From: a virus
Taxonomy: Duplodnaviria; Heunggongvirae; Uroviricota; Caudoviricetes
Strand: one strand, 5' to 3'
IMG/VR virus record: IMGVR_UViG_3300047480_000504
Length of the DNA stretch: 64,000 nt
How positions within the stretch are numbered: position 1 is the stretch's first letter; every line of letters begins with the position of its first letter. Shown in pieces: positions 24,546-44,415 of the stretch. A program made the translations under genes and the position numbers. The notes beneath the pieces were generated by a model, which ran no database searches, was not told the DNA's origin, and saw only the letters and a program-made list of their open reading frames with translations.

Positions 24546-25769
24546 ATGCGTTTACGTGAACTATTATCAGAAGTTAAAATCGACAATCACAAAGGTGCTG
24601 GTGCAGTTCCTTATAACCAAGACGTAGACTACTTTGGCCTACAGGTTATGATGAAGCCCAGCACATTCCTACGACTGGCTGCACCGCTGGGTCAAGAGCA
24701 CAGTGCCGAACTAGAAAAATACATTGCCGACGGTGGTGCAATTGGTGCTCCGTTTTTAGAAATTAAAATCCCGCCAGAATGGGATGACGGTGACTTCTCT
24801 AAGCCTGCACAAGTTGCAGGTCACGAAGGTCGCAATCGTATGACAGCTATTCAAAAGCTGGAAGGTGATACACCTATTGAAGTGCATATCTTCCCTCGTG
24901 GTGGATACCGTGCTCGAGACATTACTCCAGAGTTTAGGTCTGCAATTGCTCGTGGCTTACAAGCTGAAAAGGCTACAAACATTATTGCAGGTCCGTTATT
25001 TGAAGATGACTTAGAAGAAGGTTGGCGAGATACACTTACTAACCTGGCCATTGCAGGTGGTGTTGCCGCAGGTGGCATGGGCGGTATGATGGCCAAGCAA
25101 GGAGCCGAAAACTACTTCAAAGAGCCCACTGCCGTAGTTGCACAGGCCCCACAATCTAAGCAAGCAGAAGCACCAAAGACATTTGCACAAGCCAAGTCAG
25201 CTCCAAGTGCGCCAGCCGCTGTCAAAGCCGAACCAAAAGCTGCCGCTAAAAAGATTGATGTTAAACCAATTACTGGAAATCCTCTTGAAAGCGTATTGTT
25301 ACAAGTTGCAAAATCATCTGGCCTACAAGGTACAGAACTTGCGGCATTTATGGCCCAGTGTGCTCACGAAACCCTGGACTTCAAGCGTCTAACAGAATTT
25401 GGTGGCAGCTTGGACTTCCGCAAATATGATCCAAAATATGCTCCAGGAAAAGCCAAGGCTCTGGGCAACAAGCATGTAGGCGATGGTGCAAGATATAAGG
25501 GTCGTGGATTCATTCAAATTACAGGACGTTGGAATTACAAGCAGGCCGGACAAGAATTAGGCTTACCACTGGAAAAACATCCCGAGCTACTTGAAAAGCC
25601 AGAAATTGCTGCCAAGGTATCAGTTTGGTTCTGGAAGCATCGTGTGCAACCAAACGTAGATAACTTTAAAGATACTACCAGTGTTACAAAACAAGTGAAC
25701 CCGGGCCTGCGTGGACTAGAACAGCGTAAGGATAACTTTGCTGATTACATGCAAGTTGCCATGAGATAA
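24546..25769 (+). CDS. two-domain protein: N-terminal domain with MRLRELL leader, Ala/Pro linker, C-terminal GH19 lysozyme-like domain
   Basis: C-terminal region MAQCAHETLDF ... YKGRGFIQITGRWNY ... VWFW matches the GH19 (chitinase-like phage lysin) catalytic region. The linker is AAVKAEPKAAAKK. Confidence 0.65.
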   Translation: MRLRELLSEVKIDNHKGAGAVPYNQDVDYFGLQVMMKPSTFLRLAAPLGQEHSAELEKYIADGGAIGAPFLEIKIPPEWDDGDFSKPAQVAGHEGRNRMTAIQKLEGDTPIEVHIFPRGGYRARDITPEFRSAIARGLQAEKATNIIAGPLFEDDLEEGWRDTLTNLAIAGGVAAGGMGGMMAKQGAENYFKEPTAVVAQAPQSKQAEAPKTFAQAKSAPSAPAAVKAEPKAAAKKIDVKPITGNPLESVLLQVAKSSGLQGTELAAFMAQCAHETLDFKRLTEFGGSLDFRKYDPKYAPGKAKALGNKHVGDGARYKGRGFIQITGRWNYKQAGQELGLPLEKHPELLEKPEIAAKVSVWFWKHRVQPNVDNFKDTTSVTKQVNPGLRGLEQRKDNFADYMQVAMR

Positions 25770-25826
25770 TGTCTTTTTGAACTGCCACAAGTTCAGCCAA
25801 AAAACTAAATATAATACACGGTTTAG

Positions 25827-26123
25827 ATGATTCTAGCCATTAATAAAGGAAAAGAAATGTTATCATTTTTAAAGAAGCTATTTGGATTTGGCCCTGCGCC
25901 AGTTGCAGAAGCACCATACAAAGTAGAAGCTCCAGCACCAGTTATCGTAACTGATGCAACTGAGTCTGTAGCAGTTCCAGTTGCGGCAGCTGATGAAGCT
26001 CCTATCGAAATTGTTCCAGTTGCAGAAGCAGTTGCCCCAGTAGTTGCAGCCAAGAAGCCACGTGCTAAAAAGCCGGCCGCTGAAAAGAAGCCACGTGCTA
26101 AAAAAGCTCCTAAGGCCAAATAA
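25827..26123 (+). CDS. histone H1/AlgP-like basic-tail protein
   Basis: Ala/Pro/Val-rich, ending KKPRAKKPAAEKKPRAKKAPKAK. Confidence 0.4.
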   Translation: MILAINKGKEMLSFLKKLFGFGPAPVAEAPYKVEAPAPVIVTDATESVAVPVAAADEAPIEIVPVAEAVAPVVAAKKPRAKKPAAEKKPRAKKAPKAK

Positions 26124-26938: not shown

Positions 26939-26939
26939 A

Positions 26940-28436
26940 ATGTTATTACGTCAATTATTAACTGAAGCACAAACTTTAGACCCAAGCGCAATTAAAAAAC
27001 GAGAAGGTCGATTTGAGCAATTTTTGCAATACATCAAAGACAAAAATCCTTTCTACACTGTAGACGGCGAGGCAGTTGTTATTGCACAAAGCGAAATCAA
27101 ACGTCTACAAACTCTAAATGACACTGGCGAGTTTTCAGGACAAGTTATGTTAAAAGATGCTGATGGAAAAAATTGGCCGTTGAGCAAGTTCTTAAAGACT
27201 CCTCCTTTTGGCCAAGCAGTTGTCCCTGGCGGCGATGGCAGCGAAGGTGACAGTGAAAACGCAGGTAAAGAAGCACTAATAGTAAAACCCAAACAAATTG
27301 GTATCACTGACAAAAACTTTAAAGCAACTGACTTGGGCAAAATGATTGTTTCTAATTCTGCGTTAAAGTCTACAGAATACGGAAAAGTAGTTATTGAAAT
27401 GGCCAATCAGATCATGAGAGGCCAGCCTGCTGTTATACCCGAACAGTTCAGACGCAACAAGGCAATACGAGCAGCTATCATTGATTATGCTGGCGAGTAT
27501 CTAGGCGTGTTGGCGTTAATTTACGGGCAATCTGAATTTCCAAAGCAAGCCGAGTTCTTAAAGTGGTTAGGTGGAAGTTTAACTGATTTAACTTTGAATT
27601 TTCCCGGCAAAACCAATAACCCATTGGCTGATAGCTTTGCAACTGTAACTAACCCAGAATCACAGCGCCAGATTAATATTTCTAGCAAAGGTCAAAAAGG
27701 TGGGGCGGCCCCTAGCATTGGTGCATCAATTACAGTACCCAACGAAATGCGAGGTAAAAAGAAATTCCAATTTGCAATCGACTTTATTGACCTACTTCAG
27801 AACAAGTCTTTACCAAAACCAGCCAGTGTAAGTCAGATATTTCAGGCCATGAATCTACTACACTCAAATAAGCCAAACTTGATTCCTGACGAATTTAAAA
27901 AATATGTTCCTTGGAAGCCAAGTATTATGGACGAAGTCATGAGTAGTATCCGTGGCAAGACACCAATGGCCAAATATCAAGAAATTATCAGCAAGGAAGA
28001 AGGCAACGGAACCGACGGCGGCAAGTTGGCATACGCAGCCAAGAAAGCTGTAATCAATGCATTCAACAGTGGGGAAGTTCCTGAATTTCAGGCCGCAATC
28101 TTAGAAATTTTAGATATGAACTTTGTTCAGCAGTATGCAGATATTGAAAGTCTAAGAACTGGCGTAGTTAAATTCTACACCCAATGGCCTGCCAAGTTAG
28201 ATGGTGTTGTCACAGTTGAAACCAAATCAGGTGCAACAGACCCTACCAAAGGAGCATTTAGCTTTAAACTAAAGCCGCCAGGATCAAAAGCTGATCCAAT
28301 GCCCGACTTGGACCCAGATGATAACGTAGTCGCTAAGCCTAGCTCAATCTCAACAAATCGCCAAACAGTCAAGAAGATTGTGCCCAAGGACAAGCCTGCT
28401 ATGACTACAACCAGCACTACACGTCAACTAAAGTAA
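26940..28436 (+). CDS. hypothetical large protein with MLLRQLLTE leader
   Basis: ATG at 26940 immediately after the upstream TAA. 499 aa. Confidence 0.5.
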   Translation: MLLRQLLTEAQTLDPSAIKKREGRFEQFLQYIKDKNPFYTVDGEAVVIAQSEIKRLQTLNDTGEFSGQVMLKDADGKNWPLSKFLKTPPFGQAVVPGGDGSEGDSENAGKEALIVKPKQIGITDKNFKATDLGKMIVSNSALKSTEYGKVVIEMANQIMRGQPAVIPEQFRRNKAIRAAIIDYAGEYLGVLALIYGQSEFPKQAEFLKWLGGSLTDLTLNFPGKTNNPLADSFATVTNPESQRQINISSKGQKGGAAPSIGASITVPNEMRGKKKFQFAIDFIDLLQNKSLPKPASVSQIFQAMNLLHSNKPNLIPDEFKKYVPWKPSIMDEVMSSIRGKTPMAKYQEIISKEEGNGTDGGKLAYAAKKAVINAFNSGEVPEFQAAILEILDMNFVQQYADIESLRTGVVKFYTQWPAKLDGVVTVETKSGATDPTKGAFSFKLKPPGSKADPMPDLDPDDNVVAKPSSISTNRQTVKKIVPKDKPAMTTTSTTRQLK

Positions 28437-28475
28437 AATTAAGTAGCACTTTATTAATCTAGCGCAAACTTTTAA

Positions 28476-28511: not shown

Positions 28512-28991
28512 ATGAAAAAGATAACTTTAGCACTAGTTTCAAGCGTGGCATTAAGTGCAGGTGCCGCCGAACTACAACACAATTTTAATAGCCCAGCCTT
28601 TAGCGGTTTGGGCTATTCGTCGCATGTCTTAACTCTAAAGCAGTTAGAAGATCAACAAAAAGACAAAAACAAACAAGCCGCAGAAGCATTAAAAGCGGCC
28701 GCTGAGCGTGAGGCTGCAAATACACCACAGGCACGTTTTAAAGCCAGCATGGAAACTCGCATTTACAGTGAGTTGGCCAAGCGTATTAGCGATAGCTTGT
28801 TTGGTTCAAGTCCAAGCGCACCAACTTGCACACCTACCAGCAGTGGCGGCCCATGTGGTGACATTGACATTGGCGGACAAAACATTACTTGGACGATCCA
28901 AGGTACAAACATAATTGTTAGAATCGCTGAAATTGCAAATCCAAACAATTACACAGAATTAACAATGCCTTATGCGGCATTTAACATCTAA
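28512..28991 (+). CDS. CsgF-like curli assembly protein
   Basis: Signal peptide. The mature N-terminus ELQHNFNSPAFSGLGY matches the CsgF N-terminal FxFxNPxFGG motif. It is positioned directly upstream of the CsgG-like gene. Confidence 0.5.
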   Translation: MKKITLALVSSVALSAGAAELQHNFNSPAFSGLGYSSHVLTLKQLEDQQKDKNKQAAEALKAAAEREAANTPQARFKASMETRIYSELAKRISDSLFGSSPSAPTCTPTSSGGPCGDIDIGGQNITWTIQGTNIIVRIAEIANPNNYTELTMPYAAFNI

Positions 28992-29000
28992 GGAACAACT

Positions 29001-29858
29001 ATGAAAAGAACAACGTTATCCTTAGCAATATCAGCGGTACTTGTGCTGTCGGGTTGTGCTACAGGTTCTGCGATACGAGAAAAAGTCACTGGCAATCAAT
29101 TTGATGCACCAGTGGTTGAACAAAATGTATTTTTAAAAGATCAGTCGGCCAAGTTAATGCCGCCTGCAACTGGCCCAATCCCAGTGGCTGTTTATGGCTT
29201 TCAAGATAAAACTGGTCAGCGTAAAAGCATTCCTAACATTGCCAGCTTATCAAGTGCAGTTACACAAGGTGCAGAAAGCTACTTGATCAAAGCATTACAA
29301 GATGTTGGACAAGCTCGTTGGTTTACAGTATTAGAACGTGTTGGCTTAGAGAACTTAATCAAAGAGCGCCAAATGATTCGTCAAGCTCGCGAACAGTACC
29401 AAGGCAAAGATGCCAAGCCATTAACACCAATGATGTTTGCAGGTATTATTGTTGAAGGCGGTATTGTTGGTTATGACAGCAACACATTAACAGGCGGATC
29501 CGGTGTTCGTTTATTAGGCATTGGGGCAAGCACACAATATCAAAGCGATACTGTTACAGTTAATTTAAGAACAGTAAGCGTTTCTACAGGCGAAGTGCTA
29601 ACAAGCGTTACAGTGACCAAAACTGTATTAAGCTACATGGACAAATTTGGTGTGTTAAAATTTGTTGACAGCGGAACACAAAGTGTTGAAGCTGAAACTG
29701 GCGCTAGTATTAATGAAAGCATCAATAAAGCAGTTAATTTGGCTGTTCAGGCTGCTGTAGTCAATACTATTCACGAAGGTGCTCGTAAGGGGCACTGGAG
29801 TTTTAAGGAAGATAAGCCGGCGGCTGAAGAAGTAAAAGGCGGGGCAACTGCACAATAA
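29001..29858 (+). CDS. csgG: CsgG-family curli secretion channel lipoprotein
   Basis: Lipobox LVLSGC. Colinear with E. coli CsgG across the whole length: VAVYGFQDKTGQ vs VSVYNIQDETGQ, WFTVLERVGLENLIKERQMIRQA vs WFIPLERQGLQNLLNERKIIRAA, IIVEGGIVGYDSN..GGSGVRLLGIGASTQYQ vs IMVEGSIIGYESN..GGVGARYFGIGADTQYQ, LRTVSVSTGEVLTSV..KTVLSY vs LRVVNVSTGEILSSV..KTILSY. Confidence 0.8.
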   Translation: MKRTTLSLAISAVLVLSGCATGSAIREKVTGNQFDAPVVEQNVFLKDQSAKLMPPATGPIPVAVYGFQDKTGQRKSIPNIASLSSAVTQGAESYLIKALQDVGQARWFTVLERVGLENLIKERQMIRQAREQYQGKDAKPLTPMMFAGIIVEGGIVGYDSNTLTGGSGVRLLGIGASTQYQSDTVTVNLRTVSVSTGEVLTSVTVTKTVLSYMDKFGVLKFVDSGTQSVEAETGASINESINKAVNLAVQAAVVNTIHEGARKGHWSFKEDKPAAEEVKGGATAQ

Positions 29859-29952
29859 GTTTAAGAAAAACTGTGCATGGATCTTGCTTGTACAGTATGT
29901 AGGTCTTGGAAAAACTTACACTCTCTGGCAAGATCATAGAGAGTTAATTAAC

Positions 29953-29964
29953 GGGATATATCCC
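29953..29964. promoter_or_regulatory. 12-bp perfect palindrome GGGATATATCCC
   Basis: Lies between csgG-like and the curlin-repeat gene, 40 nt upstream of the ATG at 30006. Hairpins at 29877-29931 precede it. Confidence 0.35.
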
Positions 29965-30005
29965 AAGGAGCTAGGCAGAGAAAAGTAATCTGTTTAGGTT
30001 TTAAA

Positions 30006-30803
30006 ATGAATAGAAGTATAACAAAAGTTTGTTTGCTTACAGCGGCATTAATGGCTACTGGCACTGCATGGTCCCAAGCCGCAACTGGCCCAAACAAAGT
30101 ATACATTGAACAAATTGGCAATAGCAACACTGTTACCATTCAACAAGTTGGCGGAACAAACAACGTAGGTGGTATTGCGTTGAGTACACCTACTAGTGTT
30201 AGCGCAAGTGGCATCACAACACTAAGTCCTGCGGCACCAAGTTCGTCTAACTATGCTACAATTACAGGTAGTAGCAACACGGTTGCACTTACACAAACTG
30301 GTAACGGCAACAGTGCTCAGTATGACTTGCAAGGCAACAACAACGTTTACACTAGTACAGTAACTGGCCACAGTAACCAAACTAGTCTAACAATTGGCGA
30401 TGTTAACAATGCATCAAACTTGCGTAATACTGTTACTGAAACTATCACAGGTGACAGCAACTTGATTATTCAGCAATTGGTGGGCAGTGATATCACTAGC
30501 ACTACTGCAATCACTGGCAACTCAAACCAAATTACCAAAGAGTTAAAAAGCTCAAACGGTACAAGTGATATTGACATTAGTGGTAACAGCAACGTGTTGA
30601 ACATTCAACAAGTGGATGCGGCTGGTGCTAATGGTCACTACTTAAAGCAAGTTATTGCTGGTAGCTTTAACAGTATCACAACTCAACAACAAGGTACAAA
30701 CGATACCACAGTTGATATCCGCGCAACCGGCAGCAACAACACAATTACTGTAAGAACCAGCAGTAGTAGTATTGTTACTCCAGGTACAGCTATTGCGAGA
30801 TAA
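30006..30803 (+). CDS. curlin-repeat amyloid subunit-like protein
   Basis: Signal peptide followed by at least 7 imperfect repeats of the curlin type (e.g. VYIEQIGNSNTVTIQQVGGTNNV, VALTQTGNGNSAQYDLQGNNNV, LNIQQVDAAGANGHY). Composition is Gln/Asn/Gly/Ser/Thr. Confidence 0.6.
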   Translation: MNRSITKVCLLTAALMATGTAWSQAATGPNKVYIEQIGNSNTVTIQQVGGTNNVGGIALSTPTSVSASGITTLSPAAPSSSNYATITGSSNTVALTQTGNGNSAQYDLQGNNNVYTSTVTGHSNQTSLTIGDVNNASNLRNTVTETITGDSNLIIQQLVGSDITSTTAITGNSNQITKELKSSNGTSDIDISGNSNVLNIQQVDAAGANGHYLKQVIAGSFNSITTQQQGTNDTTVDIRATGSNNTITVRTSSSSIVTPGTAIAR

Positions 30804-30806
30804 TCA

Positions 30807-31913
30807 ATGTGGAAGGCGCTGTTTGCCACACTTCTAATCGCAAGCAATACTACCACTTTTGCCAGTGGTAGTATTGGTGTTGTGTCCGACAATAAAGGAA
30901 CACAATGTGAAGTACAACGTGGCAAAACAAAATCATCAGGCATAAAAGGTGCTAGCATTGAAAGCATGGATACCTACCTCACACAAGCCTGTGCCTCAAA
31001 CATTACATTTAAAGACGACACCAAAGTAAAGGTTACAGAAAACTCCAAGTTGGTAATCGATGACTTTGTGTTTGATCCAAAAAATTCAGATGCTGGCAAA
31101 CTAGCAATGAAAGTGACAATGGGCACTGTTCGTTATGCCAGCGGACAAATTGCTAAAAATAATCCACAACAGGTTGCAGTTAAAACACCAACTGCCAACA
31201 TTGCTGTTCGTGGTACAGACTTTTCAATGACTGTAGATGAAACAGGTCAAAGTTTAATTGTTCTATTGCCAAGTTGCAAAGAAGAAAGCGAACAAAAGAA
31301 ATATGAGTTAGAGGAAAATCGTTGCAGAGTTGGACAGATATCTGTATCTAATAGTGCTGGCACAGTGGTATTAGATAAGGCATTTGAAGCCACATACATT
31401 ACCAGTGCAGACATACGTCCAACTGCACCAACAGTTATTCATACTGTTGAAAGTAAGATCAACAACAATTTAATTATCGTACGTCCGCACGAAGTAGAAC
31501 GTGCTATCCGCGACAACACTGGTCGTACCAAACGCGAAGAATTAGAAGCTGAAATTGAAGCCGAGGCCGCCCGTCGTTTAGCGCAACGTGTTCGAGAGTC
31601 CAACGAAGAACTTGAACGTGCAAGATTATTAGCAATAGCAGAAGCTGCCGGTAAAACTGGTTGTAATGCAAGTACTAATATTTGCGTTACTTGGGCTAAT
31701 CCTGATGCACAGGAAATACAAAGCCGTGGCAAGGGCATAGCATTTAGAAGCAACGAAGATCATTATGCTGAAGTAAAGACACAAGGCTACAGTAGCAATA
31801 CTGCAATTACCATTGTACATAACGATGCCAGTGCCAGTGAACTAATTGGTGCAGGTGGCGGCGGGGGCAATACTGTTTATATCAAGCAGAACCTTGGGGT
31901 GCTACGCAGATGA
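30807..31913 (+). CDS. secreted FecR-domain-like protein with C-terminal curlin-like half-repeat
   Basis: Signal peptide. GTVRYASGQIAK ... ANIAVRGTDFSMTV has a FecR-like fold signature. Coiled-coil segment. The C-terminus is GAGGGGGNTVYIKQNLG. Confidence 0.4.
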   Translation: MWKALFATLLIASNTTTFASGSIGVVSDNKGTQCEVQRGKTKSSGIKGASIESMDTYLTQACASNITFKDDTKVKVTENSKLVIDDFVFDPKNSDAGKLAMKVTMGTVRYASGQIAKNNPQQVAVKTPTANIAVRGTDFSMTVDETGQSLIVLLPSCKEESEQKKYELEENRCRVGQISVSNSAGTVVLDKAFEATYITSADIRPTAPTVIHTVESKINNNLIIVRPHEVERAIRDNTGRTKREELEAEIEAEAARRLAQRVRESNEELERARLLAIAEAAGKTGCNASTNICVTWANPDAQEIQSRGKGIAFRSNEDHYAEVKTQGYSSNTAITIVHNDASASELIGAGGGGGNTVYIKQNLGVLRR

Positions 31914-32086
31914 TGTTTGAAAGCGAATTGCGTCACATGTACCAGGCCTGGCAGCAAGGACAAGACAATTACATACTTGATTCACACCGTTTTGTTGAAT
32001 GGGCAGCGGCATGGAACAAGGCATCAACAGATGTAATGCTAAAAGAGCTACAGCGTTATTCTTGGTTTAAAAGGTTAGAGGCATGA
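31910..32086 (+). CDS. small hypothetical protein (58 aa)
   Basis: ATGA overlaps at both ends (31910-31913 and 32083-32086). Below the ORF-track cut-off. Confidence 0.3.
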   Translation: MMFESELRHMYQAWQQGQDNYILDSHRFVEWAAAWNKASTDVMLKELQRYSWFKRLEA

Positions 32087-32646: not shown

Positions 32647-32673
32647 GACTTAAAATAGTATAAATACGTTACT

Positions 32674-34683
32674 ATGAAATTACGTGACGTCAACCCCCAA
32701 CAACCAGTTTTAGCCGAACAACAGCTAGACGAAATTAACATGAGCCCATCTAGCTTAAAGCAGTTGGCCAGCCAAATCACAGCCCGCGCAGGTATGGAAT
32801 TTGAAATGATCGTTCCAAATGCCGAAAATAACGAAGGCGGCGATATGGAACCTGACTATGATCAAGATCAGCGTACTCGTAGCTTTGGGGACATTGAAGA
32901 ATTCTTTAACGATGGGGATTACAACGGTTCGCGTCAAGTGCGTGAATTAATAGCGGCACTACAAGAACGCTATTACGAGTGGGAAAGCGAAAAGATTGAC
33001 GAAGATTGGGCGTCAGACGGGGAAGACTATTTGCGTGATTGGATCCACAATAACGAATGGATCGAAGAAGATAAAATTCGCGAGCATTTAGAATCACAAG
33101 GTCTTGACGAAGAAGAAATTGATGCGGCCATGTCAGCTGGCAACAGTGCTCCACGTTATAGTAAACTGGATGTACAACAGGCCGCACGCGAATCAGATGA
33201 AAATTACGATCGCTACATGGAAGCTAAAAGTGCCGCAGATGAAGAATTTGATGAATTAGTAACGTCTGAGTGGGAAAGTCGTGGTAGCATGTATGACTCT
33301 GCACTGGACGAGTATCGCGAAGAAAATCAAGGCAATGCTGATGAAGAAGACTTTTTATCGTCTGAGGGTTTACGATACATGAGTGATGTTGCCAATGAGT
33401 TCAGTGGTGATATTACATGGCCCTATTGGACAACACCGTACGGTGGCGAAGTTAGTGCAGAAGAAGTTGCCAAGGACTTTGCTGAAGCAATTGGACGTAG
33501 TGTAAAAGCCAGTGGCTCTTATCACTCAGGTGGCGTACAGCGTCCCAATGCCGAAAACTTGCACTACATTGTAGAACCAGACGGTAGCTTAGAGGCTGAT
33601 GACAGCGGAGATGGAGGCTTGGAGTTTGTTAGCCCGGCACTGCCTATTGCTGAACTATTAAGTGACTTAGACAAAGTTGCCAAGTGGGCCAGCAGTTATG
33701 GCTGCTACACAAACAACTCAACTGGTTTGCACATCAACGTCAGCGTTGAAGGCTGGTCGGGCGATGTTGGCAAGTTAGACTATGTCAAGTTGGCATTGTT
33801 GTTAGGCGACAATTATATCTTAGACAAGTTTGGTCGTGCTGGCAATACCTATTGCAAAAGTGCCATGAACGAAATCAAATCTCGTGTAAGTCAACGTCCC
33901 GAAGATGCAGGTGTGCTACTGCAAAAGATGAAAAGTGGCCTAGACAGTTTGGCCAGTAAAGCAATCCACTCTGGTGTTACAAGCAAATACACAAGTATCA
34001 ATACTAAAAATGGTTACATTGAATTCCGTAGTCCTGGTGGCGACTGGTTAGGAGCGTATGCCGCTGATCCTGGTTCTATTACCAATACCTTGCTACGATT
34101 TGTTGTAGCATTAGATGCCGCAGTGGACCCAGAGAAGTACAAACAAGAGTACTTGAAAAAGTTATACGCAATCTTACAACCCAAGACACACAACGACACC
34201 ATGGCCTACTTTGCACAGTATGCCGCAGGACAAATGCCCAAGGCTGCATTAAAGAGTTTTATTCGTCAAGCACAGTTAGAGCGTCAAGGTAAAAAGCCTG
34301 AGCCCGAGCAAAAAGAACCAAATTACTATATTTCTGATCGCGACACTGGTCAAGTTTATCACAAGTATTATGCAGCCAACAACAACGATGCATTTGAATA
34401 CCTACAGCGTTGGAAAGCACAAAGCTCGGCCCATGCCGGTGGCGATCACTTACAGTATGGCAAGATAATGCCGGGACAAGAACCTGGACAAACTACACCT
34501 AGATCTAGCGGTGGCGAGTGGACTGGCCAGTGGCTAATTAAAGACGGCAGTGATAGAGTGTTACACTCGTTTGGTGGTATAGGAAATAATCAAAGTGATG
34601 CAAATAGATTTGCTATCCAATGGCTAACTAGAAACGGATATGGACACGGTACTGAAGTCAGTGTAGTTCCAGAAATGAGATAA
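32674..34683 (+). CDS. large acidic protein with MKLRDV leader
   Basis: 669 aa with a very acidic N-terminal third. Confidence 0.5.
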   Translation: MKLRDVNPQQPVLAEQQLDEINMSPSSLKQLASQITARAGMEFEMIVPNAENNEGGDMEPDYDQDQRTRSFGDIEEFFNDGDYNGSRQVRELIAALQERYYEWESEKIDEDWASDGEDYLRDWIHNNEWIEEDKIREHLESQGLDEEEIDAAMSAGNSAPRYSKLDVQQAARESDENYDRYMEAKSAADEEFDELVTSEWESRGSMYDSALDEYREENQGNADEEDFLSSEGLRYMSDVANEFSGDITWPYWTTPYGGEVSAEEVAKDFAEAIGRSVKASGSYHSGGVQRPNAENLHYIVEPDGSLEADDSGDGGLEFVSPALPIAELLSDLDKVAKWASSYGCYTNNSTGLHINVSVEGWSGDVGKLDYVKLALLLGDNYILDKFGRAGNTYCKSAMNEIKSRVSQRPEDAGVLLQKMKSGLDSLASKAIHSGVTSKYTSINTKNGYIEFRSPGGDWLGAYAADPGSITNTLLRFVVALDAAVDPEKYKQEYLKKLYAILQPKTHNDTMAYFAQYAAGQMPKAALKSFIRQAQLERQGKKPEPEQKEPNYYISDRDTGQVYHKYYAANNNDAFEYLQRWKAQSSAHAGGDHLQYGKIMPGQEPGQTTPRSSGGEWTGQWLIKDGSDRVLHSFGGIGNNQSDANRFAIQWLTRNGYGHGTEVSVVPEMR

Positions 34684-34684: not shown

Positions 34685-35530
34685 ATGAAAATACAAGACG
34701 TCACAGAAGGCTACGGCCGATACTATTGTTCCACAGATAAAAAGTGGAAGACTCGTAAAGGTCCCAAGCAGACTAGAAAAGTAGCTGAAGGCTCATTTAA
34801 AGATGCTAGTCCGATGACTAAAGATACAGTAAAAACAGATCGTATCCGCAGCCTTAAGAATCTTATCTCTATTGCCAAAGAACAAGGACGACAACTGCGA
34901 GTTCAAGAACTTGAGTTAGAACTAAAGAAGTTGCAAGGTGTGGCGGAAGAAAAGCAACGTTTAGATGCCAAGTGCTGGGATGGTTATAAAAAAGACGGCA
35001 CTAAGATGAAAGGCGACACAAGAGTCAACAACTGCGTCAAAGAAGACTCGCTAGAAGAGTACGGCGATACAGCGCAAGGTCAAAAGATGTTGACCAAGGT
35101 ACAGAAACGTGCTGTAGATAGAGTAGTATCTAAGAAGGCAGATACAGACCCCAAGTATGCCAAGAAGAATTCAGACTCTGCCAAACGTGCCTGGGAAAGA
35201 ATGGCAGACTTAGAAGAAACTTACGACGGTGACGAGTTTTTTGAAGCCTACGGTGAGTTATGGTATAACGAAGATGAACAGCTAGATGAAGCTGAATACC
35301 AAGGCCGCTCAGTACCACTTGGCAAGCCCATGCAAGGCGATGTTAAAAAGTTCAAAGTGTACGTAAAAGATCCGTCAACTGGTAATGTTAAAAAAGTAAA
35401 CTTTGGCGATCCTGATATGAAGATTCGTAAGAGTAATCCAGCGGCTCGTCGTAGCTTCCGTGCTAGACACAACTGCGACAATCCAGGTCCACGTACAAAG
35501 GCACGTTACTGGTCTTGCCGCAAGTGGTAA
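34685..35530 (+). CDS. basic protein with MKIQDV leader
   Basis: ATAATATG junction. Lys-rich. Confidence 0.45.
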   Translation: MKIQDVTEGYGRYYCSTDKKWKTRKGPKQTRKVAEGSFKDASPMTKDTVKTDRIRSLKNLISIAKEQGRQLRVQELELELKKLQGVAEEKQRLDAKCWDGYKKDGTKMKGDTRVNNCVKEDSLEEYGDTAQGQKMLTKVQKRAVDRVVSKKADTDPKYAKKNSDSAKRAWERMADLEETYDGDEFFEAYGELWYNEDEQLDEAEYQGRSVPLGKPMQGDVKKFKVYVKDPSTGNVKKVNFGDPDMKIRKSNPAARRSFRARHNCDNPGPRTKARYWSCRKW

Positions 35531-35531: not shown

Positions 35532-35948
35532 ATGCTGATACGTGAACTGTTTGAACCAAACAAACCGTGGCAATGGAGCTTCCGTGGCAGCGAGGAAGCA
35601 GTTGCAGTGTTTCATGTTGGCGAAATTCCTTACATGTTTCATGCTTACGGTACTGATGGCGTATGGGAAGTTGAATTTAAACGCCACGGAAGTAAACTTG
35701 ATCGTGCCAATAAGTTTGGCTTGACTGGTACTGGCAACTCAGCCGAAGTCATGAGCACAGTAGTTGACATCATGCGAGAGTTTTTAACCAAGTACAAAGA
35801 TCAAATTGAAACACTAACGTTCTCAGCCAAGGAAGACTCGCGACAAGGGTTGTATGCACGAATGGTCAAACGACTATTACCCTCATGGACCATGCATCAA
35901 TCTGGTGAAGAATTTGTATTGGCAGCTCCAAACGATCCTGTCCAATAA
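35532..35948 (+). CDS. hypothetical protein with MLIREL leader
   Basis: ATG at 35532, two nt after the upstream TAA. In frame with the listed 35460 ORF. Confidence 0.4.
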   Translation: MLIRELFEPNKPWQWSFRGSEEAVAVFHVGEIPYMFHAYGTDGVWEVEFKRHGSKLDRANKFGLTGTGNSAEVMSTVVDIMREFLTKYKDQIETLTFSAKEDSRQGLYARMVKRLLPSWTMHQSGEEFVLAAPNDPVQ

Positions 35949-38643: not shown

Positions 38644-38646
38644 CTG

Positions 38647-39357: not shown

Positions 39358-39358
39358 G

Positions 39359-39742
39359 TTGTTATATTTTGCATATGGTATGAATACCAACAATAATGCT
39401 ATGTCCAAGACTAGCAAGCGTTTAGGCCCAGCAGTGCTATTAGATTACAAGTGGGAAATGCTACAGTTTGCCAATGTATTTGAAATGAGGGGTGTCACTT
39501 CAATTGGTATTCTATGGGAAATTGATGAAAATGAATTAAAAGAGTTGGATATGCGCGAAGGTTATCCAACATTTTATAATCGAGTTATTGCAGAAGTAGA
39601 ACACAACGGAGAGCTGGTTCAAGCCTGGGTATATTATATGACCCCAGAATATAGAACAAAACTAGCCAATGAAAAACCGAGTCAACAATATTATGACTCG
39701 GTTGTTGAGGGCTTCGCGCAAGACGGAATTGTTATTTCTTAA
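39359..39742 (+). CDS. gamma-glutamylcyclotransferase (AIG2/GGCT-like)
   Basis: N-terminal LYFAYGMNTN (the YFAYGSNM motif) plus a catalytic Glu context EGYP. TTG start. Confidence 0.55.
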   Translation: MLYFAYGMNTNNNAMSKTSKRLGPAVLLDYKWEMLQFANVFEMRGVTSIGILWEIDENELKELDMREGYPTFYNRVIAEVEHNGELVQAWVYYMTPEYRTKLANEKPSQQYYDSVVEGFAQDGIVIS

Positions 39743-40261: not shown

Positions 40262-40542
40262 TAATCGCGCCTCGCATCATTTTTACCGTCTGCTCGAGCA
40301 ATACGTGATGTATCTGGCTTTAAGCCTAATGCATTTGATACAACAGCATCAATGCGTATAACATCGTGATTCATTGTTTTAACACGGTTATCAAGAGCTT
40401 CAATGATACCTTTAAGGCCCGACACACTTGAAGTAACGCCTGCTAAAATGAACTTTAGTGTCAAAAACACAAAGTACCCTGCGGCAATAGCGGCTGCAAT
40501 TGGGAAGCCTACTTCTGCTACTAATTTGAAAAACTCACCCAT
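40261..40542 (-). CDS. membrane protein, paralog B
   Basis: FPIAAAIAAGYFVFLTL TM segment, then LDNRVKTMNHDVIRIDAVV. RBS AGGATTGCCAAGATG on the minus strand. Confidence 0.45.
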   Translation of the reverse strand: MGEFFKLVAEVGFPIAAAIAAGYFVFLTLKFILAGVTSSVSGLKGIIEALDNRVKTMNHDVIRIDAVVSNALGLKPDTSRIARADGKNDARRD

Positions 40543-40654
40543 CTTGGCAATCCTTTATCTATAGTTGTATTTATTAAAACGGACCAAAAACAGGACCACT
40601 TTTGTGTTTGGTAAATAGAGCGAAGGTTAATGTGCAAAAACAATAAATATATCT

Positions 40655-41530
40655 ATGAAACTACGTGAATTAATTGTAATGGAGGATGGGGAAGCCGCGG
40701 TGGCAACCACGTCTAGCGACATCGCTACAGTGGCTTATCCTCTATTTGTACGTGGTAAAAGCAAAAAAGAAAAACGCAAGAACGCTAGAGCCGCAGTAGG
40801 CCAAAAGTACGTACCGGGTCCTAAAGGAATTGGTCAAGGTGTATTTGAAAACGTAGAAGAAGCACACGTATTAAATCACGATAACGTTATCTATAGACTA
40901 GACCGTGACAACCCCATGAGCGATACTGAAGTACTAGTACTAGGTGGTGCTGGTCGTTATAGCTTAAAAGCACTCCGTGATAAAGCACGTAGAGAAGCGG
41001 CGGCATTGGCACAAGATCTCAGTATTGAACATGGCGGTGCATTTAGACGCAGTGCTGAAAACATTAAGCAATTAACAAACACAATCAATACTATTGTTGC
41101 GGCCTACAATGAGCTAGCAAGATTAAGACGCAAGGGTGGTCGTGGTAGCCGTGGTATTACGGATGAAGATGCTAACTTTATTCGCGAATGTATTCGTGTA
41201 GTAGAGCAAGCCACACAGAATTATAGATTAATGGAAGGTCTTACGCAGGAGCCCGATCCTGCAGGATATGCCAAAGACACACTAACAACACCCAAGTATA
41301 CCATTGTAGTAAATACACCTGGTGACTTAGATTGGTACAAGGTTGGTACGTATTGGAACAATAAAGTCATTGATCCCCATGAATTTGGGCAAGACGACAG
41401 CGACACTGTGTTAGTAGCACAAGGCGTAGAAGAATATAAAGAAATGTTGGCCAAAATTAAACAAATGGGCCTGACATACAAAACAATTGGCGGCACGACT
41501 GATCAGCCAGAAATTCACGATAAACCATAA
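40655..41530 (+). CDS. hypothetical protein with MKLRELI leader
   Basis: N-terminal leader family member. Confidence 0.45.
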   Translation: MKLRELIVMEDGEAAVATTSSDIATVAYPLFVRGKSKKEKRKNARAAVGQKYVPGPKGIGQGVFENVEEAHVLNHDNVIYRLDRDNPMSDTEVLVLGGAGRYSLKALRDKARREAAALAQDLSIEHGGAFRRSAENIKQLTNTINTIVAAYNELARLRRKGGRGSRGITDEDANFIRECIRVVEQATQNYRLMEGLTQEPDPAGYAKDTLTTPKYTIVVNTPGDLDWYKVGTYWNNKVIDPHEFGQDDSDTVLVAQGVEEYKEMLAKIKQMGLTYKTIGGTTDQPEIHDKP

Positions 41531-41541
41531 AAGGGACAAAA

Positions 41542-44415
41542 ATGATTCGCATTAGACTAATCAACGAAGGCCGTGTAGTTAAACAAATTACCAGCCGCTT
41601 ACACGAAGGTGTTGTACTTGAGCAAATTAAAAAGTACAAGGATCCGTACGACACTGTTCAAATCGTCGAAGGCGAATTGAGTGAAGGTGCAAAAGATATG
41701 TTGCATCACGTTGCTAAAAAGATTGTACCAGCCGCGCTGGCCGCAGGTATGGCAATGAGTGGCGCAAGTAATGCACAAGCACAAGGCGGGGCAAATCCAC
41801 ATTATCCAGGTTTGAATCATTCAGTTGGCCAACAGTTGTCTGACATTTTTAGCCCTAACTATAAAGAATTAAGACGCCAGCGTGACCACCAACGCTCCAC
41901 TGAACGTCAAGTATGGGACGCAGAACAAAACGAAATTCGTAAGCAACGAGTAAATGCCGCTCGAGCTGCCGCAGGTGGCGGCAACCAACCGGTAATTTAC
42001 GATCAAAGTCGATTAAGCCAAGATGGTAAGTCTTATATCATTTACGGCATTGACAACAAAGTACGCCGTATCCCAGTTGCAGGTACAGAATATATGCACG
42101 GTGACAGCCAACGCTTGCCACACTATATTACAAGTGGTGGCAATGTGTTGTATGTTCGTCACCCACATGCAGTGACCGAAAGTGTAGCGGAGGGCACAGA
42201 TCCAAATAAACAATCACACGCAGAAGCATTCAAAAGCGAAACTGACACTATGAAGCCAGATACTAAAAAGTATGTGGGTAGAAAAGGTGGCAAGGAAGTT
42301 CATGCTAAAAAAGATGCACAGGGCAATGTCAAGTTCTATCACAGAGATGGTATCAAAGGTCCATTAAAAGCAGTAAATGAAGGTGTAGCTGAAGGCTATA
42401 CAGTAACTCGTGGCATTGATCGTGAACGTTATCAAGAGCGTCCAGGCTTAGAAGGCCCATTCTCTACTCGCAGTGGTAAGGTTGTGTATTACGATCCCCA
42501 AGAAGGCAAGTATTACGATCCCGAAACTGACTTTTACATTGGCCACGAAGATTACGCCAAGATGGACGAGGATGCACCAGCTCTAGTAAAAGGTGCCGCA
42601 GGACTGGCATTAGGCGGCTTAGCTGCCGCAGGTGCTCCTGCTATTGTTGCTATCTTGGGCCCATTGTTAGGTATCCCAATGGCTGCATACGGTGCTTATA
42701 GTGCCGCTAAGTTAGGCATGAAGGGTGTAGAAAAGCTATGGGACATGGCTTCAGATAAATTAGGCGGCGATGATAAAGTTGCACAATACACTAATGCCAA
42801 GTTGGCCACACTGCCACCAGAGCAGGCTAAAGCAGGTGCGGCAGTAGTTAAAAAGATTGGCGAAAGCAAGCAAGGCGTAGTCGAAAGCGATCCAAATGCT
42901 ACAGTAGGTACTATTCCTTCAACAGGTACAAGTGGTGGTACAGGTCGCACACAATTTGCCCCAACAGGTAAAACAACTAACGCTAAGTTTAACAAGAACG
43001 GCCAAATTGAATTAGACACAGAACAAGAAGACGACGGCAGTGTCAACTTAGATCCAGATGCAGTAAAACAATTACAACAAGCTGGCGTAAAAATTAAAGA
43101 GACTGATGATGACGGCAGAGATAAATTCTATTATCAACGCAACAACATCTGGAGAGTCATGGACGGTGACGATCTAGTTGACGAATACAAAGCCCAACGT
43201 AACGAAATTGTTGGCGCTAAAAAGTTGCTGGCTCGATATGACGATGAAGGTTATGATGTAGACCGTGTAATTAGCCCAATGGGATTTGTTACATACTTGT
43301 ATGGCAAACCAGTGGATGAAGCTACAATAAGCGAAAGTGACAGTCCAGTGGCTAGTGCTATTGCTCGTCGTATTATGAGTCAGCGTCTTGACCTGCTACA
43401 AAAATATGGTCCCGTAAAAGTAACAGCCGCCATTGACGAAGTTGCTGACTTTGTAGGTGATGTAGAAGAAATTGGTAGTAGCGATGTAAGCGGTTGGGTC
43501 AAGCACGTTGAACAAATGTTACGTGACAATCCAACAGCGGCATTTGGCGAAGCGTCTGACACATTAGAAGGTATCCTAAGCAAGTACAGTGCTGACTATG
43601 CCAAGTTCAAAGCAGGTGGCGACATTGATGAAAACCAAGACTTCTTTGACGCATTGTACGCATACTATTCTGAATCGGGTGAAATGCCATACGGCGTACA
43701 AAAAGCCCGCGATGGCGATCCGTATGAGTGGATTACACAACGTTTAGATCACGAATCCGGTGTATCACCAGTTATTGAAGCAGATGGTGACGAAGCAAGT
43801 GCAGATCAAAACATTATTATGCAAATCCGCAAAGCAAGTGATTACGAAAAGCCAACTAAGATCGAACTAGCCGACGGTACTGAAAGCGTTATTGCTCCAA
43901 ACATTGCCAAGCAATTATTGGCCAAGTTTGATAAAATGAAGCCGGAGAGCAAGGAGCTATTGCAAAATACACTAAACACAGAAGAAGGCTTTAAAGAAAT
44001 CATTGCTTATTTTGGTGGTGGTGTACGTGAACAAGCGGCTGCTCGTGTTGGCAATATCATGCAAAGTGCAATGGCCGAAGCAGGTTATGGACGCTATGAT
44101 CGTCGCGATGCTTACCAACGTGATTATGATAGCAGTGTAGCAGGGATGGGCAAGCGACAATCGTATGCTTATCAAATGGACGGTGGCGCCAATGATGAAG
44201 GTTGGGACAAGCCAGAACAAGAACGAGCCTACTATAAAAAGTCACCGGTCCCAGCTAAAAAAGGCTATTACTTCTACAATGTACCAGCTGATCAAACTGC
44301 TAAAGCAGAAGAACTTGGCTTGTTCAAAACAAAAAGCGGCAAATGGTACAGTCCATTTGAAAACACACGTGCCAACATGTTCTTTGGCGCAGGCAGATAT
44401 TGGGAGCCAAAATAA
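41542..44415 (+). CDS. very large (957 aa) protein with central Gly/Ala-rich hydrophobic segment
   Basis: RBS AAAGGGACAAAAATG. Central segment GAAGLALGGLAAAGAPAIVAILGPLLGIPMAAYGAY looks membrane-active. Confidence 0.55.
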   Translation: MIRIRLINEGRVVKQITSRLHEGVVLEQIKKYKDPYDTVQIVEGELSEGAKDMLHHVAKKIVPAALAAGMAMSGASNAQAQGGANPHYPGLNHSVGQQLSDIFSPNYKELRRQRDHQRSTERQVWDAEQNEIRKQRVNAARAAAGGGNQPVIYDQSRLSQDGKSYIIYGIDNKVRRIPVAGTEYMHGDSQRLPHYITSGGNVLYVRHPHAVTESVAEGTDPNKQSHAEAFKSETDTMKPDTKKYVGRKGGKEVHAKKDAQGNVKFYHRDGIKGPLKAVNEGVAEGYTVTRGIDRERYQERPGLEGPFSTRSGKVVYYDPQEGKYYDPETDFYIGHEDYAKMDEDAPALVKGAAGLALGGLAAAGAPAIVAILGPLLGIPMAAYGAYSAAKLGMKGVEKLWDMASDKLGGDDKVAQYTNAKLATLPPEQAKAGAAVVKKIGESKQGVVESDPNATVGTIPSTGTSGGTGRTQFAPTGKTTNAKFNKNGQIELDTEQEDDGSVNLDPDAVKQLQQAGVKIKETDDDGRDKFYYQRNNIWRVMDGDDLVDEYKAQRNEIVGAKKLLARYDDEGYDVDRVISPMGFVTYLYGKPVDEATISESDSPVASAIARRIMSQRLDLLQKYGPVKVTAAIDEVADFVGDVEEIGSSDVSGWVKHVEQMLRDNPTAAFGEASDTLEGILSKYSADYAKFKAGGDIDENQDFFDALYAYYSESGEMPYGVQKARDGDPYEWITQRLDHESGVSPVIEADGDEASADQNIIMQIRKASDYEKPTKIELADGTESVIAPNIAKQLLAKFDKMKPESKELLQNTLNTEEGFKEIIAYFGGGVREQAAARVGNIMQSAMAEAGYGRYDRRDAYQRDYDSSVAGMGKRQSYAYQMDGGANDEGWDKPEQERAYYKKSPVPAKKGYYFYNVPADQTAKAEELGLFKTKSGKWYSPFENTRANMFFGAGRYWEPK

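Follow-up and report, generated by a model that had tools for sequence, protein, structure and literature searches.

In phage T4, the internal proteins IPI-III carry the capsid-targeting sequence MKTYQEFIAE, in which the determinants of targeting and processing lie at residues 4, 7, 8 and 10, and both this sequence and the short N-terminal propeptides of Alt and gp24 are removed by the prohead protease gp21 (PMC8442874, PMC9026906, PMC3012670, PMC5694885). Similar N-termini are found on the T4 head proteins gp24 (MAKINELLRE) and gp22 (MLKEQLIAE). In phiKZ, 201phi2-1 and SPN3US, head and ejection proteins are processed by diverged gp21 homologues (PMC5694885, PMC10052503). The polyvalent proteins of phages and conjugative elements, which include the DarA and DdrB head proteins of phage P1, are large mosaics whose genes lie among those for late or virion proteins, and their injection along with the DNA is predicted; their domains include nucleotidyltransferases, zincin-type HExxH peptidases, an acetyltransferase-like segment, ParB-like and lysozyme domains and other effectors, and ParB-lysozyme fusions were explicitly noted (Iyer et al. 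2017, PMC5512222).

The window, the 64,000-nucleotide stretch of Caudoviricetes DNA analyzed here (IMG/VR record IMGVR_UViG_3300047480_000504), contains nine late genes, seven strong and two weak members, whose products share the N-terminus M-[KRL]-[LI]-[RQ]-[ED]-[LV]. The initial annotation had reported near-identical N-termini on proteins with differing bodies, and this is confirmed: the translations at all nine start sites are exact, independent gene calls on public contigs with identical proteins use the same start codons (products of 407, 498, 669, 138, 291, 957 and 284 aa), and an all-against-all BLASTP of the nine proteins found no similarity past the leader (best match E = 0.035). A six-frame scan of the window with M[KRL][LIF][RQT][EDQ][LVI] gave eight matches, each of them on the plus strand at the start of a gene in the 9.6-44.4 kb interval, with no internal matches. 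The expectation at the ~117 gene starts is 0.018, from a background of three occurrences of the five-residue pattern within the proteins encoded in the window (~20,000 internal residues); the pattern was defined post hoc from data already seen, which is immaterial because the excess is far too large. A more general pattern found no further members in the window. Of the two proteins previously listed as weaker relatives, that at 41542 (MIRIRLINE) falls outside the scanned pattern but has a 9-residue architecture ending in I-N-E, and that at 44415 fits the pattern and is the weakest member of the leader set. The similar codons, once offered as proof that the motif is not compositional, do not serve that purpose, being merely the genome's commonest (CGT, 36% of Arg; TTA/CTA; GAA, 79%; AAA, 58%); the nucleotide similarity between leaders follows from the peptide and codon usage.

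A T4-type late-promoter motif heads each of three clusters of leader genes (24546...26940; 32674-34685-35532; 40655-41542-44415). NTAAATA occurs 12 times on the plus strand of the window and four times on the minus strand, mostly just 5' of start codons; all features that follow are on the plus strand, and an arrow marks a predicted cut or module boundary. The first leader gene (9646..9840) encodes a 64-aa cargo module with the leader MKIRELTE (9646-9669; predicted cut L-T-E↓ASGYI), and the late-promoter-like CTAAATA at 9623..9629 lies 16 nt 5' of its start codon. This small ORF is shown to be coding by the presence of its module inside the 1000-1600-aa ORFs of the related loci L029-L032, straight after VNE↓ASGYIP. 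A second CTAAATA (24535..24541) stands 4 nt 5' of the ATG of the 407-aa cargo at 24546..25769, predicting a near-leaderless transcript; here the leader MRLRELLSE (24546-24572) is followed by a ParB/Srx-like domain, a Gly-rich hydrophobic segment, an Ala/Pro/Lys linker and a GH19 lysozyme domain. The 498-aa cargo at 26940..28436, of unknown fold, has the leader MLLRQLLTE (26940-26966) and a Shine-Dalgarno sequence upstream, with no adjacent promoter, and its divergent syntenic homologues (24-26% identity) retain MLFRQIFE or MLLRHIFE. Genes for CsgG-, CsgF- and FecR-like proteins and several signal-peptide proteins occupy 28512-32646, among the leader genes.

The second cluster opens with the exact T4 late-promoter consensus TATAAATA (32659..32666), the sole copy on the plus strand of the window, 7 nt 5' of the ATG of a 669-aa acidic protein (32674..34683) with an Amidoligase_2 domain (Pfam) and the leader MKLRDVNPQQPVLAE (32674-32718; predicted cut L-A-E↓QQLDEINMSP). 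One nucleotide past its stop codon, close-coupled, begins a 281-aa basic protein (34685..35530; leader MKIQDVTE, 34685-34708) with internal V-A-E-G and V-A-E-E sites, and then a 138-aa DUF6934 module (Pfam; 35532..35948) with the short leader MLIRE (35532-35546; predicted cut I-R-E↓LFEP). The third cluster has ATAAATA at 40643..40649, 5 nt 5' of the ATG at 40655 and kept in all orthologous loci, again predicting a near-leaderless transcript. Its genes encode a 291-aa cargo (40655..41530; leader MKLRELIVME, 40655-40684; predicted cut V-M-E↓DGEAAV), a 957-aa cargo (41542..44415; leader at 41542-41568) with two Gly/Ala-rich hydrophobic segments and internal V-A-E-G at residues 215 and 282, and a 284-aa protein (44415..45269; start MKFTDLGDKG), whose start codon overlaps the preceding stop (TAATG) and whose first [LIV]-x-E is V-A-E at residues 18-20 (44466-44474).

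Comparison with several hundred related sequences indicated that orthologues keep the leader, as the initial annotation had proposed to check: in two cargo families (~90 and 103 database homologues) a leader of 5 or 9 residues precedes the domain, and the consensus M-R-A-x-E-F-[ILV]-x-E is kept across ~200 homologues. Among 61 ParB/Srx-like homologues with short N-terminal extensions, Glu stands at P1 directly before the domain in 53 and L or I at P3 in 50; P4 is mostly F, I or L, P5 is E or D, and the modal length is 9. The DUF6934 family has Glu at P1 in 103/103 and a hydrophobic P3 in 102/103, in discrete leader lengths of 5 residues (23 cases) and 9 residues (62 cases; consensus M-R-A-[TQ]-E-F-[IVL]-T-E); of 17 junctions flagged as internal in this family, ~9-10 are genuine and the rest resemble upstream start-codon mis-calls. 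The leader tracks lineage, with M[KR]LREL in close relatives and MRAxEF in distant ones. Cargoes are exchanged behind it: at one syntenic locus, products of 138, ~262 and 444 aa all begin with MLIRE/D. In distant relatives the window's cargo modules are fused into 1000-1600-aa polyproteins with [LIVM]-x-E right before the module, and the motif is retained at each fusion junction examined. Thus fused relatives of the 40655 protein have the same boundary behind other upstream modules (AVME↓DGEAT in L016, NVME↓DEGGAS in L017), the 41542 protein is fused in frame to a 40655 homologue in L018 (KEIMIRIQLVHE↓GRVVKQ), and fused forms of the 32674 protein show ALAE↓ELQ at the boundary, while its distant orthologues have MRAIDFLIE↓ or MRARNFIAE↓ immediately ahead of the same block. 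Within the window, the leader proteins total 3.6 k residues and contain VAEG four times, against none in the remaining 16.5 k residues, and [LIV]xE[GAS] is 2.6-fold enriched in leader proteins.

These alignments place the predicted cut differently from the initial annotation. A gp21-type [LI]-x-E site is upheld by the family consensus and the fused-module boundaries, but the L-R-E at residues 3-5 is not favored as that site: in most leader proteins the cut probably falls after the second Glu (residues 8-20), the likely scissile bonds being LSE9, VME10, LTE8/9, VTE8, INE9, LAE15 and VAE20. Only for 35532 does the alignment of the family put it elsewhere, after I-R-E5. The invariance of the Glu may in part reflect the start of the conserved domain instead of a cleavage site.

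Evidence from cultured relatives also supports capsid targeting. A DNA polymerase gene lies just beyond the window's downstream end, and its product shares 42-48% identity with the polymerases of Atu_ph07, Phosso and Rak2-like jumbo phages. The genes of Atu_ph07 include those for a Gp23-family capsid protein and a Peptidase_S77 protease. Mass spectrometry identified Atu_ph07 gp196, a homologue of the 32674 amidoligase (32% identity, E = 9e-28), in virions. The Atu_ph07 gp53-63 family is also found in virions by mass spectrometry and every member starts M[KR]WxQL[TN]E, which is weak independent evidence because these proteins are paralogues. The only cultured homologue of the 24546 N-terminal domain, RsoM2USA ORF385 (start MQTFKQFLSE), is encoded within the head module, where ~700 bp separate it from the capsid gene and a gp21-type protease gene is close by. 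Taken with the consensus and the fused modules, the virion and head-module homologues support the initial proposal of capsid targeting with T4 gp21-type [LI]-x-E processing of packaged proteins, and we consider it likely that the shared N-terminus is a T4-type capsid-targeting sequence in a distant, uncultured jumbo phage of the T4 superfamily. The inner-body role proposed alongside it is a phiKZ concept that gained no support here, where no phiKZ-type inner-body genes were seen. Weighing against capsid targeting, neither the window, ~11 kb of upstream DNA in relatives nor any locus retrieved from the lineage, including ~10 kb beyond the window's downstream end, yielded a Peptidase_S77, scaffold or major capsid gene; the proteases that the window encodes are of the C1 and S8 families; and in the window L, I or V replaces the targeting-relevant Phe7 of T4.

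Under capsid targeting, the three clusters would be transcribed late from (T)ATAAATA promoters, each product bearing a leader of 5-20 residues, typically M-[KR]-hydrophobic-x-[ED]-hydrophobic-hydrophobic-x-E. The leader would bind the scaffolding core during prohead building, so enclosing the protein, and a gp21-type serine protease (Peptidase_S77), which we infer to be present in this genome, would then remove it by cutting after the Glu of [LIVM]-x-E. The same protease may also cut internal V-A-E↓G sites in some proteins and polyprotein junctions in relatives. The mature enzymes would remain in the head and be ejected with the DNA, a predicted set comprising the ParB/Srx-like-GH19 lysozyme fusion, the amidoligase, the DUF6934 module and the large proteins with Gly-rich hydrophobic segments, and a membrane role for this cargo may be envisaged. 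If this is true, injected proteins could be identified from sequence alone.

Papain-family proteases classically prefer a hydrophobic P2 and a basic P1, as do cathepsins, and M-K-[LI]-R puts Leu/Ile-Arg at P2-P1. The window encodes both a papain-family C1 peptidase (20873-21547) and a subtilase S8 (2376-3896), so the leader might be a processing or targeting signal for one of these, cut after L-R and unconnected with the capsid, a reading also favored by the lack of an S77 protease in the sequence available. We nevertheless regard it as very unlikely, since Arg is not conserved in the wider families (position 4 is T, Q, G or S in the 9-residue consensus), the conserved part is the downstream hydrophobic-x-Glu, and internal junctions retain [LIV]-x-E, not L-R. 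Equally little weight is given to a leader that targets the tail or baseplate, the cell envelope, or export via the phage CsgG/CsgF-like channel, which would suit the position of the CsgG-, CsgF-, FecR-like and signal-peptide genes between leader clusters, the lysozyme domain of one cargo and the hydrophobic Gly-rich segments of two. The leader lacks a hydrophobic core and a signal-peptidase site, whereas the neighboring secreted proteins have ordinary signal peptides; the motif fits the head-specific capsid-targeting sequence and gp21 site of T4, and the RsoM2USA homologue sits in a head module.

Gene shuffling via short conserved cassettes has reportedly been described in T4-type phages, and different cargoes do stand behind one leader at the syntenic locus noted above. 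A functionless N-terminus, whether a recombination scar from a promoter-plus-start cassette or a relic of common ancestry, is still highly improbable, as the peptide pattern rather than the DNA is conserved over hundreds of divergent homologues in many lineages, leader lengths are discrete, the P1 Glu is invariant, and the boundary is kept at internal junctions where promoter cassettes are absent; recombination may well spread the leader, but a scar leaves unexplained the selection that keeps it. Least probable is that the conserved start acts at the nucleotide or translation level, rather than as a peptide, in late genes whose promoter is 4-7 nt away from the ATG, for instance by enhancing initiation on near-leaderless mRNAs or by serving as an initially transcribed promoter element. 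In its favor, leader DNA is alike between genes, and (T)ATAAATA lies at that distance in three of the seven strong members and at 16 nt in a fourth (9646). Against it, genes 26940, 34685 and 35532 have no promoter next to them and show a Shine-Dalgarno sequence or translational coupling to the preceding gene, genes 11294, 12043 and 54495 have the same promoter spacing and no leader, synonymous codons differ (CTA/TTA/ATA/ATT; CGT/AGA) and are simply the commonest ones, and the peptide motif is retained within long ORFs, distant from start codons.

Like the phage studied here, phiKZ, 201phi2-1 and SPN3US are jumbo phages, and they have many packaged proteins cut C-terminal to the Glu of a three-residue motif at multiple sites per protein, as is predicted for the leader proteins; in those phages, however, the motif is A/S/G-x-E, propeptides are mostly >100 residues and a common short leader is absent, whereas here P3 is L, I or V as in T4 and leaders have 5-20 residues. 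The fused ORFs of L014, L018 and L029-L032 are like polyvalent proteins, their non-Pfam domain names being read from motifs, but in the window most modules are encoded individually behind a leader of their own, and the predicted processing is by a prohead protease at [LIVM]-x-E, whereas autoproteolysis by embedded metallopeptidases was proposed for polyvalent proteins, with no description of a shared N-terminal leader (PMC5512222). Analogous leaders (M[KR]WxQL[TN]E, MRWQD...KLTE, MQTFKQFLSE and MTTFKEYLTE) occur on Atu_ph07 gp53-63 and gp196 and RsoM2USA ORF385 and ORF403-405, and are unmentioned in the published papers on these phages. Leader function was shown by experiment in T4 and is read here from sequence comparison, in a distant jumbo relative with a polymerase nearest those of Atu_ph07 and Rak2-like phages. 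As in T4, a short N-terminal peptide (~10 residues in T4, mostly 5-10 here) stands on otherwise unrelated late proteins, the predicted cut follows a Glu with L, I or V at P3, cargoes vary widely, evolve fast and can be exchanged, and a Peptidase_S77 protease is encoded in the closest cultured relatives. The T4 P5-P1 residues E-F-I-A-E match the family consensus, with an identical E-F-I-x-E core, and the two align with F7, I8 and E10 of T4 opposite F6, I7 and E9; the window has E-L-[LI]-x-E, with L, I or V where T4 has the targeting-relevant Phe7. The leader departs from that of T4 in that its length takes two discrete values, 5 or 9-10 residues, and falls one residue short of T4; its cargoes are large enzymes or multidomain proteins instead of small basic internal proteins, and its motif also marks the internal junctions of polyproteins in relatives.

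Translation of the window reproduced every N-terminus that the initial annotation had listed for the nine leader-bearing genes, which are named here by start coordinate (9646, 24546, 26940, 32674, 34685, 35532 and 40655, with weaker leaders in 41542 and 44415). The same start codons appear in independent gene calls on public contigs that encode identical proteins. The pattern M[KRL][LIF][RQT][EDQ][LVI] matched eight times in the six frames of the window, each time at the start of a plus-strand gene; the same five-residue pattern occurred 3 times in ~20,000 internal residues, so that 0.018 matches would be expected at gene starts. A search for further members in the window returned none, and in BLASTP comparisons the leader was the only detectable similarity among the nine proteins, as it was among those of relatives. 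Shared codons had also been offered as evidence against a compositional origin; because the leader is built from the commonest codons of this genome, that argument adds nothing.

Among the modules carried behind these leaders are a C-terminal GH19 lysozyme domain, which follows a ParB/Srx-like N-domain in 24546, an Amidoligase_2 domain (32674) and the Pfam family DUF6934 (35532). Gly/Ala-rich hydrophobic stretches occur in 24546 and in the 957-aa product of 41542, and PHROG and Pfam searches returned no function for 40655, 26940, 44415 or 9646. Iyer et al. (PMC5512222) predicted that ParB-lysozyme fusions among the late genes of phages are injected. The window encodes another GH19 lysozyme as a stand-alone protein (45282-45917), probably the endolysin; next comes a sugar-nucleotide/radical-SAM cluster (45984-55253), whose members include a cytidylyltransferase/mannose-phosphate isomerase-like gene and one for a 781-aa UDP-glucose dehydrogenase fusion. 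A few kb from the amidoligase gene (32674-34683) lies a GGACT/AIG2-like gene of the gamma-glutamyl cyclotransferase family (39359-39742), and the two products may form a pair that makes and breaks peptide bonds. At 22713-23772 the window encodes an SPFH/Band_7 protein and, next to it, a small protein whose N-terminus carries the methylation motif of type IV pilins (MKQRGFTLIELMIV). A 683-aa CHASE2 sensor-adenylate/guanylate cyclase protein (36592-38643) has ~40% identity to proteins of two marine T4-like phages, Pelagibacter phage HTVC008M and Methylophilales phage Melnitz. At 55855-62278 more than 15 small genes (products of 60-150 aa) stand in tandem, the stop codon of one overlapping the start codon of the next, and their products have a common C-terminal motif, roughly (E/K)(E/D)DAxxFxL(T/R)WS.

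The 64-kb window has a G+C content of ~42%, with almost every gene on the plus strand. No close cultured relative was found among 50,697 phage genomes by megablast with 21 kb of the sequence, and tblastn with the 957-aa protein matched solely a 90-residue domain in Vibrio phages. Identical proteins on other contigs led to a family-B DNA polymerase gene directly downstream of the window and to tail-fibre-like genes upstream; the best matches of the polymerase (42-48% identity) are in Sinorhizobium phage Phosso, Agrobacterium phage Atu_ph07 and the Rak2-like jumbo phages CBB, GAP32 and XbC2, all of them remote members of the T4 superfamily. In Atu_ph07, homologues of 16 T4 core proteins have been reported (PMC6102473).

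Two scans of viral contigs supplied 27 loci from ~20 related contigs. Orthologues at 70-90% identity retain the leaders unchanged, and more distant relatives (41-52% identity) carry a different but related leader, MRAxEF[IL]xE. Behind the leader MLIRE[LD], one syntenic position encodes either the 138-aa DUF6934 protein or, in other contigs, an unrelated family of 261-444 aa, a swapping of cargo that resembles the plastic internal-protein loci of T-even phages. Leader-bearing proteins formed 17 sequence clusters across the loci, the largest of which is joined by shared modules alone. Low-GC phage contigs of an unrelated group (L142, L157 and L158; 35-36% G+C) encode 433-487-aa proteins with the N-terminus MKLREL[FY]E(D/H)G(G)RIVKGVNTT, and since the L157 protein has a C-terminal module in common with the window's distant relatives L028-L032, the leader system probably reaches beyond the window's lineage. 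An exact DNA search with ATGAAAYTACGTGAAYT gave 49 matches, many of them at implausible gene starts with short ORFs or long open upstream frames; none was informative singly, and the lineage has a C-terminal module in common with one family (MKLRELYEHGGRIVKG...).

In T4, the capsid-targeting sequence MKTYQEFIAE is removed by a single gp21 cut and is enough to load foreign proteins (PMC8442874; PMC10229621). Mutants assign targeting to residues 4 and 7 and processing to residues 8 and 10, and Asp at position 10 blocks cleavage and leaves targeting intact (PMC9026906). The initial annotation had proposed a signal of this type, with the cut directly after the E/D of the shared motif. Its general reading is the best supported by the family consensus and the match to T4, and the cleavage position required correction. 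At the sequence level the leaders of the window end in [LIV]-x-E at LSE9, VME10, LTE8, LTE9, VTE8, IRE5, INE9, LAE15 and VAE20. Three proteins have Asp at position 5 (MKLRD, MKIQD and MKFTD), where the T4 data lead one to expect no cut, in agreement with a scissile Glu further downstream. Within the window the tetrapeptide V-A-E-G is confined to leader proteins, which contain four copies, and [LIV]-x-E-[GAS] is 2.6-fold enriched in the same proteins, a distribution that suggests additional internal cleavage sites in 34685, 41542 and 44415.

The boundary was examined in two protein families that share these modules. Databases contain 92 homologues of the 24546 N-domain; most are free-standing and ~155 aa long, and some lie on 250-330-kb contigs. 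In 53 of the 61 with a short N-terminal extension, a P1 Glu lies directly before a conserved V-x-I-D-N; P3 is L or I in 50/61, P4 is mostly F, I or L, P5 is E or D, and the modal leader length is nine residues. In the DUF6934 family, P1 was Glu in all 103 usable homologues and P3 was hydrophobic in 102, and the leaders fall into discrete lengths of five (n = 23) or nine (n = 62) residues, the latter with the consensus M-R-A-[TQ]-E-F-[IVL]-T-E. The alignment puts the boundary of window gene 35532 after I-R-E5 (MLIRE|LFEP). Seventeen DUF6934 junctions were flagged as internal, of which ~9-10 are truly so and several look like upstream start-codon mis-calls. The invariant Glu could partly be a domain residue. 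Compared with the T4 sequence, the family consensus is one residue shorter, so that F6 corresponds to Phe7, [ILV]7 to Ile8 and E9 to Glu10. The equivalent of Phe7 is Phe in 54/62 DUF6934 leaders and in 26/61 of the ParB/Srx-like family, where the remainder are mostly I, L or Y; in the window's own leaders it is L, I or V. On a 294-kb ENA contig, genes for a 5'-nucleotidase (MRSIEFEAE), a GP88-family protein (MRFFEF...) and a ParB-like protein (MRARDFITE) stand side by side, the first with TATAAATA 4 nt upstream.

Analogous leaders occur in cultured relatives. Atu_ph07 encodes a Peptidase_S77 protein (gp204, E = 1.4e-21) and a Gp23-family capsid protein (gp215, E = 1.3e-92), and its virion proteome comprises 131 proteins, among them gp53-gp63 (Table S5 of PMC6102473), paralogues that all start M[KR]WxQL[TN]E. 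The Atu_ph07 homologue of the 32674 amidoligase, gp196 (32% identity, E = 9e-28), starts MRWQDISSKKLTE and was detected in purified virions by 14 unique peptides (Table S5). Also in the proteome, at 61.7% coverage, is gp113 (NC_042013, 84393-85148), whose ORF extends 29 codons upstream to MKTLQDYLTE. Among cultured phages, Ralstonia phage RsoM2USA alone has a protein homologous to the 24546 N-domain. This protein, ORF385, starts MQTFKQFLSE, nearly the T4 sequence; the gene for the major capsid protein (ORF383) is ~700 bp away and that for a gp21-type protease (ORF379) a few kb away. Its neighbours ORF403-405 start MTFKAFLQE, MTTFKEYLTE and MKLEDLFE if likely mis-annotated starts are allowed for. 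Better leader-like starts lie a few codons inside ORF403 and ORF405, and ORF379 is annotated in N-terminally truncated form; the deposited start codons of these three genes and of gp113 are probably wrong. The leader examples from the two phages have F or L at position 4 and F or Y at position 7.

The motif NTAAATA occurs 12 times on the plus strand and four times on the minus strand of the window, typically 4-16 nt 5' of a start codon, and one of these sites matches the T4 late-promoter consensus exactly (TATAAATA). In every leader cluster, the first gene has a (T)ATAAATA motif 4-16 nt upstream, as predicted if the leader genes are expressed late, along with the head genes. At six places (11283-11294, 12031-12043, 24535-24546, 32659-32674, 40643-40655 and 54483-54495) a (T)ATAAATA or CTAAATA motif and the ATG that follows are 4-7 nt apart and a Shine-Dalgarno sequence is absent, so that several late mRNAs would be leaderless or nearly so. 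The same promoter-ATG arrangement was seen in environmental T4-like loci (L078 and L174). In such phages, a gene between those for the portal and the gp21 protease, the position of T4 67/68, encodes an ~82-aa protein (L078:8023-8271, with equivalents in 12 other loci of L042-L121) that starts MILRELFYFD and has TATAAATA 4-5 nt upstream.

Other explanations fared less well. Processing by a protease of the phiKZ type would involve A/S/G-x-E sites and long propeptides (PMC5694885); here P3 is nearly always L, I, V, M or F and the leaders are 5-20 residues long. Sec, lipoprotein or Tat signal peptides are a poor fit to leaders that are charged and mostly 5-10 residues long, and genuine signal peptides are present on neighbouring genes of the window (e.g., MKKITLALVSSVAL and MKRTTLSLAISAVL); we give little weight to this reading, or to a translation signal or a recombination scar. 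Between the leader clusters, signal-peptide and lipoprotein genes at 28512-32646 include a weak CsgF-like match, a CsgG-like curli secretion channel and a FecR-like protein.

T4-type targeting with gp21-type processing is the probable function of the leader, a judgement drawn from sequence comparison. Peptidase_S77, scaffold and capsid genes were not found in the 64-kb window, in ~11 kb upstream in relatives, or in the fetched lineage loci, so the presence of an S77 protease in this phage's genome is presumed from relatedness. Local tblastn with six Atu_ph07 core proteins (gp21, capsid, portal, terminase, tail sheath and scaffold) gave no lineage match in the window, the related loci or 10 kb of upstream DNA, and a gp21-alignment scan of viral contigs recovered 80 loci, none from the lineage's contigs. 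Peptidases of other families are encoded in the window: a subtilase of 506 aa (S8; 2376-3896) and a papain-family (C1) cysteine peptidase (20873-21547; E = 4e-32 to PDB 3ois).

The most informative result is the fusion and fission of modules: separate genes of the window are joined in single long ORFs of distant relatives (1017-1630 aa in L014, L018 and L029-L032). A 1586-aa ORF in L014/L015, starting MKSLNEYLNE, contains the 24546 N-domain after '...GPMNE|VTIDNKDG' and two DUF6934 modules after 'LTELFE|PS' and 'ITELFE|PS'. Homologues of 40655 and 41542 are fused in L018 at 'KEIMIRIQLVHE|GRVVKQ', and the counterparts of the window's 'IVME|DGEAAV' in L016 ('AVME|DGEAT') and L017 ('NVME|DEGGAS') are preceded by other modules. 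The 1000-1600-aa ORFs of L029-L032, starting MNI[LT]ELDS, combine nucleotidyltransferase-like and HExxH segments with the 9646 module ('VNE|ASGYIP') and the 32674 amidoligase ('ALAE|ELQ'). [LIVM]-x-Glu precedes each module, N-terminal or internal alike. Because the same architectures recur in contigs of different metagenomes, the fused ORFs are not assembly artefacts, and they suggest phage polyproteins that would be processed by the prohead protease at the junction motif.

If the leader works as in T4, it provides a sequence-only label for head-packed, injected proteins of uncultured jumbo phages, which are the first to meet host defences and are otherwise unrecognizable among hypothetical genes. 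Labelled modules here and in relatives include nuclease-like, lysozyme, amidoligase, 5'-nucleotidase, acetyltransferase-like and nucleotidyltransferase-like ones, each a plausible anti-defence or takeover effector. Foreign proteins could also be loaded into the capsids of jumbo phages with the short leader as a portable tag. More tentatively, and with the balance somewhat against it, a single 'zip code', M-[KR]-x-x-[ED]-hydrophobic-hydrophobic-x-E, might across a large uncultured jumbo clade of the T4 superfamily both load dozens of interchangeable effector modules into the head and mark the sites at which the prohead protease divides polyproteins into separate injected enzymes. In that case the full injected effector repertoire could be read directly from sequence, and would evolve as genes split and fuse around the motif.

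The mechanism itself, capsid targeting with gp21 cleavage, is already known from T4. What sets this case apart is its probable occurrence in a distant jumbo-phage clade, the two discrete leader lengths, the large enzymatic cargo and the motif at polyprotein junctions; the literature searched contained no description of this leader system in the distant jumbo-phage clade and no relevant paper on leader strings of the MRAxEF and MKLREL type. The fused ORFs of relatives combine several unrelated effector domains, like polyvalent proteins (Iyer et al., 2017), whereas in the window 24546 (ParB/Srx-like plus GH19) and 41542 are the sole multidomain proteins and every other module has a gene of its own. 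An E-F-I-x-E core is common to the family consensus and the T4 targeting sequence, and the N-termini of T4 head proteins are of the same style (gp24, MAKINELLRE; gp22, MLKEQLIAE; gp67, MEGLIE; gp68, MLLIPE).
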